A program made the translations under genes and the position numbers. Source: Eledone cirrhosa (taxonomy: Eukaryota). From it: a stretch of DNA of 64,000 bases. Below are positions 44,779-60,926 of this stretch, one piece after another; position 1 is the stretch's first letter, and each line of letters opens with the position of its first letter. Below the pieces are notes generated by a model, which ran no database searches, was not told the DNA's origin, and saw only the letters and a list, made by a program, of their open reading frames with translations. The stretch covers positions 114,328,001 to 114,392,000 of the forward strand of contig OZ024745.1 of assembly GCA_964016885.1 (NCBI GenBank), given 5' to 3'.

Positions 44779-46678
44779 AGTGTTGAACAAAAGCGCAACG
44801 ATGGTTGCCGAACATTGTACGGCTTAATTCGGGCTGTTTGTTTACAAACAACCCGAACATTATAATAAATGTTGAATTTCATTTCATATATATATATATA
44901 TATATATATATATATATATATATATATATATATATATATATATAATTTATTCTTTATCATTAATATAAAAAATAATAATTATACTTTTTTAAAGAAGGAC
45001 CTCAAATTTCATATAGCTTAGGGCCTTAGCAGGTGAAATTCTGGCCATGGTTTCTTAAGTTTGCGGGTACCTTTATTAAAACACAAGAATTCTATTTGAA
45101 GTCAGAAAAAGAGTGGCAACCTTACACAAAATATGGATTAGTTCACAGATAAATACAGATTAGGTTGTGTGTTTACTGTCTTAAGCGGAATTATTATATG
45201 TGATAAAGATAGAAATACTCTCGATTTAAATTTAATAAGATTTCAAGCGGTCAATCAGACATTCAATATTGTTTTTAATGAAGAAAAAGTCTACAAGAAA
45301 GTTAAAAATAGTACGTAATGAAATCGAAGATGTATTAATAAATAAAACTGATGCACGATGCTTATTTCCATTCAGCAATCTTCCAATTCTTTGTTACAGA
45401 CATTCATTTAGAAGAATTCTTGGTTTCTTCTCTCCCTATTCAAACTGGGTAGAGGCACAGACTTTTTATTTCAAAATTCGAATATTAAACAAAGGTCGAA
45501 TATTTTTTCCATAATCAGAGGTAGCTTCAGCTTCACCTCTTGGTATGAAAACTGAACTAGAGGAATCAACGGTTCATGTTATTGACAAATAGTTCCTTTC
45601 ACAGTTGAAAGTCATCACTATTAACTGAAATAGTTAAAACTTACAGCATTTTCCCAAGAAAATTAGTAATGTAGCTAACAATAACCTCCTTCATCTAAAT
45701 AAAAAAAGAGACAGACATTATATATCTAATTGGTTATGAAAGACACTATTTGAGTAGAAAACACTTTACACAGCATTCCGTAATCTTCATGTCTAATAAA
45801 ATTACAAAATAAACAAAACAGTCACCTATATCGTATTACTCTGCGTTTTTTCACCTGTAATTAAACAGCAACAGCAATGAAAGCTAGTCTTAGGAGAGAT
45901 TTGAACTCAAAGAGAGATTAAAAAGGTTCGTGACTAAAGACTGTAAAGCATTATACTAATTTTGCTATCCAGCGCCCTTAAAAGAGTTATTATAACTATC
46001 AGCAACAACAGAGTAACTCTATAAATGACGACAATCATTGCAGTGCCAGCAACAGAGAAAGAACAGAAGTACCAACAGCATCAATAATGATTATCTCAAA
46101 CAGTAGCCGACAATGATATGGTGTATATCTGATAGCGATATTGCTGCTAAGTTAGTTGCCATGAACAACAATGACGTAACTGAAAGCACGAGGCATGTAC
46201 AACGTGCCTGTCTTTCAATGCCTTTCTTGTCGATAGTTTTCAAACAGCCCTAGCGAAAAATATTCAAATGCTACCTAGGCGGAAAGTGGTTTTTATACGT
46301 TGGAAGTAGAAAATGGCATTAAAAATATAGAAAATGAAGAAAGTGAAGACACACGTGTATTTATGTTTGGATGTACTTGTTTGTATATGAGCATATATAT
46401 ATACACGCAGGGGTTAAGTATATACATATATATATATATATATATATATATATATATATATATATATATATATATATATATATATATATATATATATATA
46501 TATATATATATATATGTGTGTGTGTGTGTGTGTGTGTGTATAAGTAGAAGTGGTATTTAATTTGTTGGAAGTCCGACAAACATAAATGTTTATAACTGAG
46601 TTAGAACACTCAACAGTCCACTGGGGTAAATGTTCAATGATATTAAATAAATTGAAACTATATTTATAAAACCATATT

Positions 46679-46743
46679 TATTTTATTATATATATTTCAA
46701 GGGTAACCAAGACAACATTGGTACGCTTTCATCAGATAAAATA
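46679..46743 (-). ncRNA. Minimal type I hammerhead motif (family H1; unit 46637-46780)
   Basis: TATTTTAT-CTGATGA-AAGcGTACCAA tgttgtc TTGGTTACcCTT-GAAA-TATATA-TA-ATAAAATA. Confidence 0.85.
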
Positions 46744-46864
46744 CTACAAAGTTTGTTTTATAAATAGAGACATACCCATGAAAATCATACCTTATCGGTT
46801 GGAAATTCACTGGATAGTGGAAATATATTAGGGATTATTCAAACCTATGTGTGAATATCATTTG

Positions 46865-48725
46865 CAATGAAAAGCATGACCGCAGGAAGGCATTTTGCTC
46901 TAGCTCCTTGATCTTCTTCTTGGCTTTCTGAAGCTCCTCGCTGGTGAAGGGCTCTGTCTCAATATTCAGTTCTTCAAACAGCCGCCTGATCTCACCAGTG
47001 CTCTGGGCTGTGAATAGCGGATCTCCTTGTAGGGTCCTAAAATGGTCTAGCCATTTCCTCTTACTATCCTCGGGCCCTGTTCCCTGGATCTGACTCGAAC
47101 ACATTCTCTTTCTCCCTGTGATCTCGTTGATGATCATCCAGCTCTCCTTACATCCAGACCTGTCAACCACTCTCTCCACGCTTCTTATCTTCTCTATCAG
47201 TGCCTCCTATCTGGCCTCAGTGTAAGCGGTACAGAGTTCTTCCCTCATCACCTCCACAGTCTCCATCCTCTCCGCCGTAGGATCAGCATAGAATTGGTCC
47301 TTGGCAGCTTTCAGGTGTTCTCTGGCTGCACACACTTTTGGGTCTGCAGAGCTGACGTGCTTCCTTTTGTTCTTTCTCCTCGGCACCAGGGTCTCACTTG
47401 CTTGCGTCACTGCATTGGTGAAGTGCCCGTACCTCCTCGTCACACTCTCTTCAGTCCATCCAATCTCTCTCTCCTCTGTCTCTCCACACAGAGCACTGAA
47501 CCTGTTCCTCACTTCCACTGTGAACCTCTCCTGTAGCTTATCATCTTCCTTGAAAGCTCCCCATTCATAGATTGCTCTCCGGCGCTAAGCCTTGCTCTTT
47601 CTTAAGCTCACTCGGACCTCACTCATAACAAGCCGGTGGTCACTACCCAGTGTACTGAAATAGTTGTATGGTTCTGTGTTCAGAACACTATTCCGCCACT
47701 TTATCCTCACCAGAATGAAATCAATCTGGGACTTGGACAGGTGCACATCCGAGATATAGGTCCACATCTTCCCCGGATTCTTCCTAAACCTTAGGTTGGT
47801 CGCTATCAAGTTCGCCTCCAGCAGGGTGTCTCTCAGTAGTCTTCCATTTCGGTTGGTGTTGTTATGGAAGTACCAGCAAGGGTCTTCACTGCCCTCCTTA
47901 CTCAGATGTGCATTGAAGTCCCCCAGAACAAGCAGGATGTTGTGAGCATGTGTTGTGTTGACAGCTCTACACACCTACTCATGGAACTCTTCCGCACTCA
48001 CACCATTGTCTCCCTCAGTTGGACTATAGGCTGAGATTGGGTTTCCATTGAAGGTCACCCTCAACACTCGCGGGGAGACAGGTATTATTTCCCTCACCAA
48101 TAGACTGGCTTTTGTGCTGAAAAAAAACCCACTTCTCCCACTGCAGCATTGGTCATGTTCCTCACTACCGATGTGGTGATGAGCTGGTTCATCTTCCTAA
48201 TCATCACACTCCTCACGGGCTCATCGTGTAGGATCCTGTGTTCTTGGATCGCAAGTATCTGTATACCACTCTCATCGAACAGATGTCCCAACTCCTCTCT
48301 CTTCTCCAGCGTCCGAATAGTCCTCACGTTCAAAGTGCCCATTTTGATGGCTCTTCTGCAGGACAAAACTACATTCTTTATATTTGTCTCAGAGACAGCT
48401 GATCCATCATCCACTGGCCTTCCCTGTGGCTCTGAGCCAGCAGAGTCATAACGACCAGACTGTTCCTTGACAGTGTAATTAGGGGCTCTAGCCCTAGTGC
48501 TGTTAGATAGAGTCTCCATATTTATTTTCAATGGCTGACAATACCTTACCGGCGCCACTCGAATAAGGTAGTTATTTAACCCATAAATGGGGCCCTAACA
48601 GGTAATACTACTCCGGGCCAGAGCAGACCTGAGAGTTATTACAACTAAGGGGTAACTCCACATTCCCCACAGCTCCTGAACTCCCGAACTGGAGCCTTGC
48701 CACTGGATGTAGTTTAGTGTCATTG
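46865..48725 (-). mobile_element. RTE-X-like LINE 5' half (UTR, APE endonuclease, linker), disrupted
   Basis: MGTLNVRTI, LAIQEHR, LGDFNAH, QIDFIL, GSDHRLV; ends with 43 bp shared with the start of 38813-39869. Confidence 0.9.
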
Positions 48726-49015
48726 CTTAAAATTTAATCTGTTATTTTAATAAATATATATATATATATATAATTATATATATATATATATATGAATTAT
48801 ATTTATTAAAATAACATATTAAAGTTTAAGCAAAGAATCGCAGCTTTCACCCAGCAGTGATTCTTTGCTTAAACTTTAATCTGTTATTTTAATAAATATT
48901 TGCTCTACGGTTCTTATATATTTGATATATATATTTATCCTTATCGAGCCCTCTTTGGATTTTAGTCTTCAAATTTATTATTATTACTATATAAATTATA
49001 TATATATATATATAA

Positions 49016-59064: not shown

Positions 59065-59992
59065 AATATGGTTTTATAAATATAGTTTCCATTTATTTAA
59101 TATCGTATATATATATATATATATATATATATATATATATATATATATATATACATATTTATATATATATATATATATATATATATATATATATATATAT
59201 ATGTGTGTGTGTGTGTGTGTGTGTATACATATATATACATGTACGTATACATATATACATATATACATATAGATATATATATATACACATATATATATAC
59301 ACATATATATACACACACACACACACACACATATATATATATAAACATATATACATATATATATATATATACGTATACATACACACGTATATATATATAT
59401 ATATACATATATTTATATATACATATATATATATGTATATATATATATATATACATATATATACGTATACATACACGCGTAATATACGTATACATACACG
59501 TATATATATATATATATATATATATATATATATACTTATACACATATATATACTTATACACATATATATGCACACACACACACACACACACACACACACA
59601 CACACACACACACACACACACACACACACACACACACACACAGTTTAAATACGGGATTGTCTCTCTGTATTGGTGATTCCCATCGTAGGCGGGGCTGCCA
59701 TGAAACCCCCACACCGGTATACGTGCTTATATAACTTTACAATGTGTGTCTATGTGTGAGTGCGTTCCTGCTTGTGTATGGTGGCATCTATATCTATCTG
59801 CTATATGTTCACATGCATCCGTAAGTGTATTTGAGAAAGAAAAAAAAAAAAAAATGAATTGATAGTATTATGCTGTATATATATATATATATATATATAT
59901 ATATATATATATATATATATATATATATATATATATATATATATATATATACGATATTAAATAAATGGAAACTATATTTATAAAACCATATT

Positions 59993-60058
59993 TATTTCAC
60001 TATATATATTTCAGGGATATCATATTAAAAATATGTTATGCCTTCTTCAGACAAAATA
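59993..60058 (-). ncRNA. Minimal type I hammerhead motif (H1; unit 59951-60098)
   Basis: Inverted, near-identical copy of 58999-59064. Confidence 0.83.
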
Positions 60059-60119
60059 CAATATAAACAGTCTTATAAATAGATAGATTCGACATACCTT
60101 TCAACTTCGACTTCTATTG

Positions 60120-60185
60120 TATTTTGTCTGAAGAAGGCATAACATATTTTTAATATGATATCCCTGAAATATATATAATGAAATA
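60120..60185 (+). ncRNA. Minimal type I hammerhead motif (H1; unit 60115-60228)
   Basis: Direct, near-identical copy of 58999-59064. Confidence 0.85.
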
Positions 60186-60926
60186 AATATGGTTTTATAA
60201 ATATAGTTTCCATTTATTTAATATCGTAAATATACTCCAAATACTTGTTGAGTGCTTTTATATCAGTTATAAATATTTACTCGTTGTAACCCAACAATTT
60301 AAATAAAACTTTGCATATATATATATATATATATATATCTACATCAGAACACTCCTTCACTATATTTCTATATCTATAAATAGATACGTGTGCATGTCAA
60401 TGTGTGAGGAAGAGAGGGAGAGTGAGAGATAGCGAGAAAGAGAGAGAGAGAGAGAGAGTAGTGTTGGAGAGAGAAAAGTTGAAAGAAGAGAGGAAGCAAA
60501 TGAAACAAAACAATTGACTGAGAGTAACTCCTTCCGTCGTAGTAAGTAATTTCAACGTAGAAAGTCAATGCAATTACGTCACTGAAGTAGATAAAAATTA
60601 CAGCGGAAGTGGGATAGGCTTGAACTTGGCCTTCAGAAAACACCAGCACTCAGATTACCTGCGTGACGTAAATAATGACGTTGGCCGCATATAATTCTAG
60701 TTTATTTATAGCACAAATGCTGCTTTATTGCTTTATTTCGTACCTTTTTATAAAAGATTACGTCATTTTTATTTTGAGCTTTCCCATCCTCACGTATTGC
60801 ATAATAAACCGGGAGAACCTCAGAGAACTTTCTATGCTATTCTATTTGTCGGTGCCTAAAAATATCACAATATCTTTTATACATACACATTCTCACAACA
60901 CAAACAGGCGTACACACCCTATATAG

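Follow-up and report, generated by a model that had tools for sequence, protein, structure and literature searches.

A 64-kb window of the Eledone cirrhosa genome (contig OZ024745.1, positions 114,328,001 to 114,392,000 of the forward strand; the window is the whole stretch of 64,000 nucleotides, numbered from its first letter) carries five copies of a short repeat, H1, each with a complete type I hammerhead ribozyme motif that covaries among the copies. We consider it likely that these copies are the 5′-truncated 3′ ends (pseudo-long terminal repeats, pseudo-LTRs) of several related subfamilies of Penelope-like elements (PLEs), with a ribozyme that, by prediction, cuts in dimeric form only. 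An earlier note, made from the letters alone, had placed five H1 motifs belonging to three variants in this window, and a structure descriptor, BLAST searches and a covariance model confirmed all of them at the positions given below. That note had missed four features: the pairing of the flanks as a distal stem I, the palindromic nature of stem III, a retroelement end inserted at 55.3 kb and a second hammerhead family.

Hammerhead motifs in the window

The structure descriptor found seven type I hammerhead motifs in the window, five of H1 and two of a second family, H2. BLAST searches with the flanks recovered the same five H1 loci and no additional family copy; therefore, the set of five omits no copy whose stem is broken. 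With the covariance model of H1, its own copies scored 79-94 bits and both H2 motifs 40 bits, while everything else remained at or below 20.1 bits. The variant A motif (46679..46743, minus strand) comprised an 8-bp stem I, CUGAUGA, a stem II bearing C·C at position 4 plus a single bulged U, GAAA and a palindromic stem III, with cleavage predicted after 46687. The variant B motif occupied 55341..55405 on the plus strand (predicted cleavage after 55397), within an element of about 55253-55447 that ended in (TA)n. Variant C was present three times, at 58999..59064 (plus strand), 59993..60058 (minus strand) and 60120..60185 (plus strand), the last two being the arms of an inverted head-to-head pair.

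All five H1 and both H2 motifs contained CUGANGA, GAAA and UH in this order. Three helices surrounded the core, which was open at stem I: a stem I of 8 bp (100% of cells paired), a stem II of 3 + 3 or more bp and a palindromic stem III. The catalytic core bases were invariant in the seven motifs of the two families and N7 alone varied. A core-only pattern had seven matches in the window, every one with a stem I of 5-8 bp and three basal stem II pairs. In the chance control, which applied the same pattern to metagenomes, two of the at least 112 loci listed (about 480 estimated) showed a stem I of at least 4 bp, none showed both features and none was a relative. The sole near-candidate among these listed control loci, a hammerhead-like core with a 4-bp stem I and a short hairpin (metagenome contig L027:849-902, plus strand), was unrelated to H1. 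Hammerhead pattern scans gave no hit in viral contigs, in prokaryote genome contigs or, with the strict pattern, in metagenomes.

Stem II variants and covariation

Read from the base, stem II consisted of A-U, A-U, G-C, C·C, G-C, U-A and A-U in variant A, of A-U, A-U, G-C, C·C, A-U, C-G and A-U in variant B, and of A-U, G-C, G-C, C·C, A-U, U-A and A-U in variant C. The variants thus differed by three two-sided changes (pairs 2, 5 and 6), one per variant, with none of the six basal pairs broken and the C·C fixed at position 4. Outward of this basal part the stem was less regular, position 8 being paired in B only. The stem II strings given in the earlier note, the C·C at position 4, the T/A variation of N7 and the wobble changes in stem I were all as claimed. 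Variant A has, in addition, a bulged T, and the ATA/TAT segment and the A·A mismatch of variant C had been left out of the note's description. Stem II was said to be rewritten, which is right for the distal part and the loop, both freely changed, but overstated for the basal stem, where 4 of 14 bases differed pairwise. Also, the five copies taken as evidence are indeed five loci but just three independent variants, since the three C copies differed by at most one base from their own majority within the motif.

Under a null model in which six substitutions were scattered at random over the stem II sites, the probability of three double changes was 4e-5 to 3e-4, and that of keeping all pairs (G-U allowed) was 4e-4 to 1.5e-2. 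In the five-row alignment, 95% of the cells were paired and the covariation score exceeded 500 out of 500 shuffles and every slid register, while the count of two-sided pairs was reached by 46 out of 500 shuffles; relatedness of the rows inflates tests of both kinds. The earlier proposal that the fold was under selection in the source elements is supported by the three two-sided changes, the lack of any broken basal pair, the low probabilities under the scatter null, the recurrence of two of the stems in a second organism and the presence of the same fold, with other letters, in H2. Selection on the fold is the best reading of the evidence, which is good but limited to three variants; a conserved fold does not by itself demonstrate catalysis.

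Stem I, flanks and distal helix

Variation in stem I affected one side only and always led to G-U, including the first stem I pair of the 60.0-kb copy. Conservation was higher in the 30-nt 3′ flank (29-30 of 30) than in stem II. The upstream flank, GGTATGTC...TATTTATAA, which the earlier note had described as common to the variants, was whole in three of the five H1 copies. The 59.0-kb copy retained ATGTC only and the 60.15-kb copy lacked the flank because it begins at the inversion junction. At 55.3 kb the flank was separated from the motif by the 3′ end of a short interspersed nuclear element (SINE). This SINE end (55294-55336, 43 nt) was inserted after the CTGA of the core, within a segment spanning 55278..55352 (plus strand), and was bordered by a 16-bp target-site duplication (55278-55293 and 55337-55352). 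The duplication rebuilt an intact core downstream, leaving the distal stem I strand and the upstream flank detached.

In all four copies with both strands (variants A and B and the copies at 59.0 and 60.0 kb), the shared upstream and downstream flanks paired with each other over 12 bp, extending stem I distally (12/12, with one G-U in variant C). Its 3′ strand, at 60192..60203 (plus strand) in the right arm of the inverted pair, had identical letters in all five copies. This pairing of the flanks with each other helps to explain their conservation, with the caveat that the strands are AT-rich and partly palindromic. A role of GGTATGTC in splicing, as a donor, or in coding was also considered; its frames differed between variants.

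Stem III palindrome and dimer folding

Stem III was formed by an 8-nt self-complementary run, which variant B retained through G-U pairs. In computed folds, the monomeric hammerhead lay about 4 kcal/mol above the minimum-energy fold (7 for the 60.0-kb copy). The two-molecule fold joined through the palindrome came within 0.6-2.5 kcal/mol of the dimer minimum for variants A and B and for the C copies at 59.0 and 60.15 kb, and within 6.9 for the 60.0-kb copy, the one with the G-U at its first stem I pair. Furthermore, the dimer fold was better than twice the monomer minimum in A, B, the 59.0- and 60.15-kb copies and the H2 copy tested, but not in the 60.0-kb copy. From these calculations, the H1 ribozyme is predicted to favour the dimer. 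An alternative 3′ hairpin in the minimum-energy folds, which would sequester GAAA, was considered as a switch and not accepted, as 21, 58 and 61 of 500 shuffles folded as well and H2 lacked the hairpin.

Copy layout and 3′ ends

All H1 copies were 140-330 nt long and had ragged 5′ ends; their 5′ sequence amounted to no more than about 120-170 nt. The whole variant A remnant (46540..46865, minus strand) had about 120 nt of 5′ sequence ahead of the motif, cut off where it abuts an RTE-like long interspersed nuclear element (LINE) fragment, and beyond the motif a long 3′ end (+147 nt) that passed into (CA)n/(TA)n. The C element at about 58962-59105 had (TA)n on both sides and a short 3′ end. In the inverted pair, the left arm (59952-60113) also had a short 3′ end into (TA)n, and the right arm (60114-60314) carried an extension, or tail, of about 88 nt ahead of (TA)n. 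Copies ended either about 49 or 137-147 nt past the predicted cut site, at two alternative 3′ ends. The long one was common to A and C (77% over 200 nt). Four of the five H1 copies ended in (TA)n and the fifth in (CA)n/(TA)n.

The window contained two inverted head-to-head pairs, one of H1 (59952-60314) and one of H2 (38082-38690), each with one longer arm. The two motifs of a pair are on opposite strands; therefore, a single transcript of it would be expected to form a long hairpin and not a dimeric ribozyme. Head-to-tail tandems of 150-400 nt, the arrangement of retrozymes, were absent from the window.

Inverted 5′-truncated copies, tails and a bias towards (TA)n are described as marks of PLEs in the accessible part of PMC8557442. 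H1 showed an inverted 5′-truncated copy joined at its 5′ end, a tail at one end, insertion into (TA)n, as in the Neptune, Naiad and Hydra clades, and a short palindromic stem III. We read H1 as the pseudo-LTR end of PLE subfamilies because the inverted 5′-truncated copies, the tail at one end and the (TA)n targets coincide with these marks. By analogy, the motif would work like the dimer-type hammerheads of PLEs, and membership of H1 in the PLEs is likely.

A second hammerhead family with the same mismatch

H2 was present as the two arms of its inverted pair. The left arm (38082-38312) held a motif at 38133..38187 (minus strand) and had a short end into (TA)n, while the right arm, which extended to about 38690 and was about 100 nt longer, held a motif at 38486..38540 (plus strand) whose flanks and stem letters differed from those of H1; the longer end was seen in this one copy only. 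From the base, stem II of H2 read G-U, G-C, U-A, C·C, A-U, C-G and A-U. H2 is unrelated to H1, yet it had the same C·C at position 4 of stem II and the same stem III palindrome.

By eye, no C·C at this position was seen in the 56 representatives aligned in PMC4209133 or in the 34 rows of the hammerhead table of PMC8557442, as far as these sources were accessible. No literature report of a C-C mismatch in stem II, or of cephalopod PLE hammerheads beyond PMC8557442, was found; Repbase, Dfam, subscription papers and unseen supplements lay outside the search and may hold these families. The C·C common to H1 and H2 is the only feature of the motifs that stands out as undescribed, and it poses a cheap, testable structural question. 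One could speculate that octopod PLEs use a distinct hammerhead subclass, in which the C·C three pairs above the core is kept across unrelated families together with a shared AU-only 8-nt palindrome. There, the C·C might be the place where the long stem I, a partner ribozyme or an element protein docks. Since the palindrome is identical in H1 and H2, pairing in trans of transcripts from dispersed copies is conceivable, and such transcripts might then cut the host pre-mRNAs in which copies lie, at very many loci. We regard this whole proposal as doubtful.

Upstream of the motifs, variant A (46790-46845, minus strand) and H2 (38360-38420, plus strand) shared a short similarity of 17 nt (88%, E 0.003) and a further match of 8 nt, which might mark where a related open reading frame (ORF) ends. 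A GLN/CLN...PVN look in the translations of these upstream regions, which rests on the 17-nt match and on a GIY-YIG end motif, was not relied on.

Subfamilies in public contig sets

Four public contig sets (X1, X4, X5 and X6) were compared with positions 59950-60320. No RNA run was listed among the sequencing runs containing the sequence, which has no bearing on whether it is expressed. Sets X1 and X4 come from one study and may include the source of the window, and X5 comes from a second organism (organism B, study P2). The number of contigs aligned was 4,567 in X1, 791 in X4, 89 in X5 and 1 in X6; contig depth is not usable as copy number. Loose ends at the base of stem II gave the stem of variant B in X5 and, in X1, X4 and X5, an A-like stem that lacked the bulge. 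As both stems recur in contigs of the second organism, A and B are spread subfamilies and not the result of drift, and the bulge of variant A is probably private to the window copy, because the A-like stems elsewhere were unbulged. In these contigs N7 additionally occurred as G, at 23% of X1 depth, and in stem I a single base varied to give G-U. Two 3′ ends were found again, with (TA)n loose ends at 60234 (33 contigs of X1 and 3 of X5) and at 60312 (2 of X4). All 15 contig joints listed, out of 20, were skips between the inverted arms. Contigs of X4, X5 and X6 continued upstream with more family sequence (loose ends at 60098-60115), which, together with the ragged 5′ ends, is as expected from the 5′ truncation of a longer element.

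Other repeats in the window

The window is rich in microsatellites, with about one fifth of it in short tandem repeats, and contains remnants of RTE and Tx1/L1 LINEs and a frequent SINE. About 20 copies of this one SINE family of about 200 nt, with at least two 3′-end subtypes, occur in the 64 kb (854-975, 1245-1405, 10127-10326, 33194-33375, 40629-41033, 43304-43493 and others). Broken RTE-like LINE copies lie at 21431-24835, 38753-39869 and 46865-48594; the first ends in C2H2 zinc fingers and the last is cut within the reverse transcriptase (RT) against the variant A remnant. An inverted pair of Tx1/L1-like LINE 3′ parts (27025-29657, about 1.1 kb at 94%) encodes zf-RVT domains, and the best named relative of one of its ORFs is from Argonauta hians (57% identity). 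A palindromic repeat family resembling miniature inverted-repeat transposable elements, with long internal inverted repeats, occupies 44108-44873 and 54350-55236, where it adjoins the 55.3-kb H1 copy. A degenerate (TA)n array of 3.1 kb extends from 50046 to 53183.

Discussion

If H1 is the pseudo-LTR end of PLEs, the following course of events could be envisaged. Two pseudo-LTR copies within one tandem transcript of an active master would pair through the palindrome, and the dimerised ribozymes would cut after AUA, trimming the element RNA from a read-through transcript. The RT/GIY-YIG protein of the element would then prime at a nicked (TA)n, beginning at one of two points that lie about 49 and 137 nt beyond the cut site. 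Reverse transcription would usually fall off early and leave short remnants. Selection would act on the active masters, and the lone copies in the window would likely be passive.

Several observations weigh against this reading. The earlier note had suggested a search for copies attached to a full PLE ORF, and no PLE ORF turned up: 149 of the 155 ORFs of the window were scanned and none matched a GIY-YIG or PLE domain. Likewise, a word-index search found no relatives of the read-through frames upstream of variant A and H2, which is weak evidence given queries of 31-43 residues and one of three sense frames for each family; phmmer with the same frames gave three matches, all repeat-driven and unrelated. 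No hammerhead family was among the seven Rfam matches at E 10 for 59950-60320, and the matches listed for the whole window (150 of 288) held no hammerhead and only microsatellite-driven microRNA families. The canonical type I hammerhead, with loop 1-loop 2 contacts, is recognised by an Rfam match and a 4-bp stem II closed by G10.1-C11.1; in H1 the 10.1-11.1 pair is A-U. At position 11.1, about 20% of X1 depth was C, and no change matching it was listed at 10.1. In published PLE hammerheads this place is often occupied by unpaired bases on both sides (PMC8557442), so such a C may be tolerated. In full context, the computed monomer fold lay 4.5-7.6 kcal/mol above the ensemble, with a probability near 0 for the proximal stem I. 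The tails of H1 and H2, at about 88-100 nt, exceed the 30-40 bp usually described for PLEs. Finally, the accessible literature reports that PLE hammerheads cleave weakly in vitro, as dimers (PMC4209133), and that one of them was dispensable for insertion in vitro (PMC11167929).

The missing ORF link could also be explained if H1 were a non-autonomous element, SINE-like or retrozyme-like and a few hundred bases long, that borrows the enzyme of a PLE and never had an ORF of its own. The size of the copies, all of 140-330 nt, would agree with this, as would the proposal, in the accessible part of bioRxiv 10.64898/2026.07.22.740005, that retrozymes derive from PLE pseudo-LTRs. We nevertheless think it unlikely, as the window has no head-to-tail tandem, the contig joints listed skip between inverted arms, and ragged 5′ ends and contigs that continue upstream (X4, X5 and X6) point to a longer element. 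Selection on the fold might instead have favoured binding or priming by the element protein, or the fold might persist as a vestige, in either case without serving cleavage. Invariant core bases in all seven motifs, with variation at N7 alone, are what cleavage predicts, and the palindrome was retained even in variant B by means of G-U pairs; on these grounds such a reading seems quite improbable, even though the 30-nt 3′ flank is more conserved than stem II, the predicted monomer fold is unfavourable, the conserved C·C would fit a binding site, and lizard PLE insertion in vitro was unaffected by catalytic mutants of the hammerhead (PMC11167929, in its accessible part).

Paired changes can also arise in the absence of selection. 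Quasi-palindrome correction is a known mutational process, in which template switching during DNA replication or reverse transcription repairs inverted repeats, and three variants were compared here. Such an origin of the H1 changes is extremely improbable: the C·C, and the A·A of variant C, were never repaired, the pair 2 change is on the basal side of the C·C, so that a repair tract starting at the loop would have removed the mismatch as well, and H2 shows a mismatch at the same position with other letters. Hence, truncated PLE ends carrying a hammerhead selected in their source elements remain our preferred reading. On this reading, the H1 motif offers a short handle to classify a very abundant octopod repeat, missed by Rfam, as probable PLE ends, and its variants constitute a natural compensatory set for testing the folding and cutting of dimer-type PLE hammerheads.

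H1 closely resembles the metazoan PLE hammerheads (Cervera & de la Pena 2014, PMC4209133), which, in the accessible part of that study, occur in thousands per genome as covarying families with a palindromic helix III, and when dispersed appear singly or as opposite-strand pairs 100-700 bp apart. H1 shares with them the type I arrangement, the CUGANGA/GAAA core, the long helix II, the palindromic helix III, the occurrence as singles and opposite-strand pairs, the many covarying families and the predicted action as dimers. It differs at the base of stem II, where the published hammerheads have an unpaired H and G10.1-C11.1 while H1 has A-U and H2 has G-U, and in the C·C at position 4 and the long stem I (8 bp plus the 12-bp distal helix). 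The alignment of 56 representatives in that source includes no cephalopod.

PLEs made up 6.83% of an Octopus vulgaris assembly according to the accessible supplement of PMC13282606, in which the H1 and H2 strings had no match. Hydra-clade PLE hammerheads, including Hydra-1_oBim of Octopus bimaculoides (Craig et al. 2021, PMC8557442, in its accessible part), resemble H1 in (TA)n targeting and in their octopod host. Their distance of about 100-200 nt from the 3′ end, their stem III, 3-4 bp long and closed by a loop of 1-3 nt, and the additional base, often U...U, on either side where stem II begins can also be counted as likeness. Their sequence is different, and five H1 and H2 motif strings had no match in the available supplement of that study.

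The accessible part of PMC11167929 equates tail length with the distance between two RT start sites. The Poseidon element PAc of Anolis described there is similar to H1 in the two 3′ ends of its genomic copies, explained by two such sites, in its AT-rich targets and in its pseudo-LTR hammerhead. The tail of PAc, in contrast, is 30-40 bp long against about 88 nt in H1, and the ORF of PAc starts within stem II, while no such ORF was seen after H1. Animal non-LTR retrozymes (PMC7229834; bioRxiv 10.64898/2026.07.22.740005, both as far as accessible) are, like H1, non-coding, AT-rich, high-copy sequences with type I hammerheads. However, they form head-to-tail tandems of about 300 bp with mostly canonical loop-loop hammerheads, whereas H1 occurs as dispersed, 5′-ragged monomers or inverted pairs. 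The arrangement found here is already known, and the picture of hammerheads in PLEs is unchanged by it.

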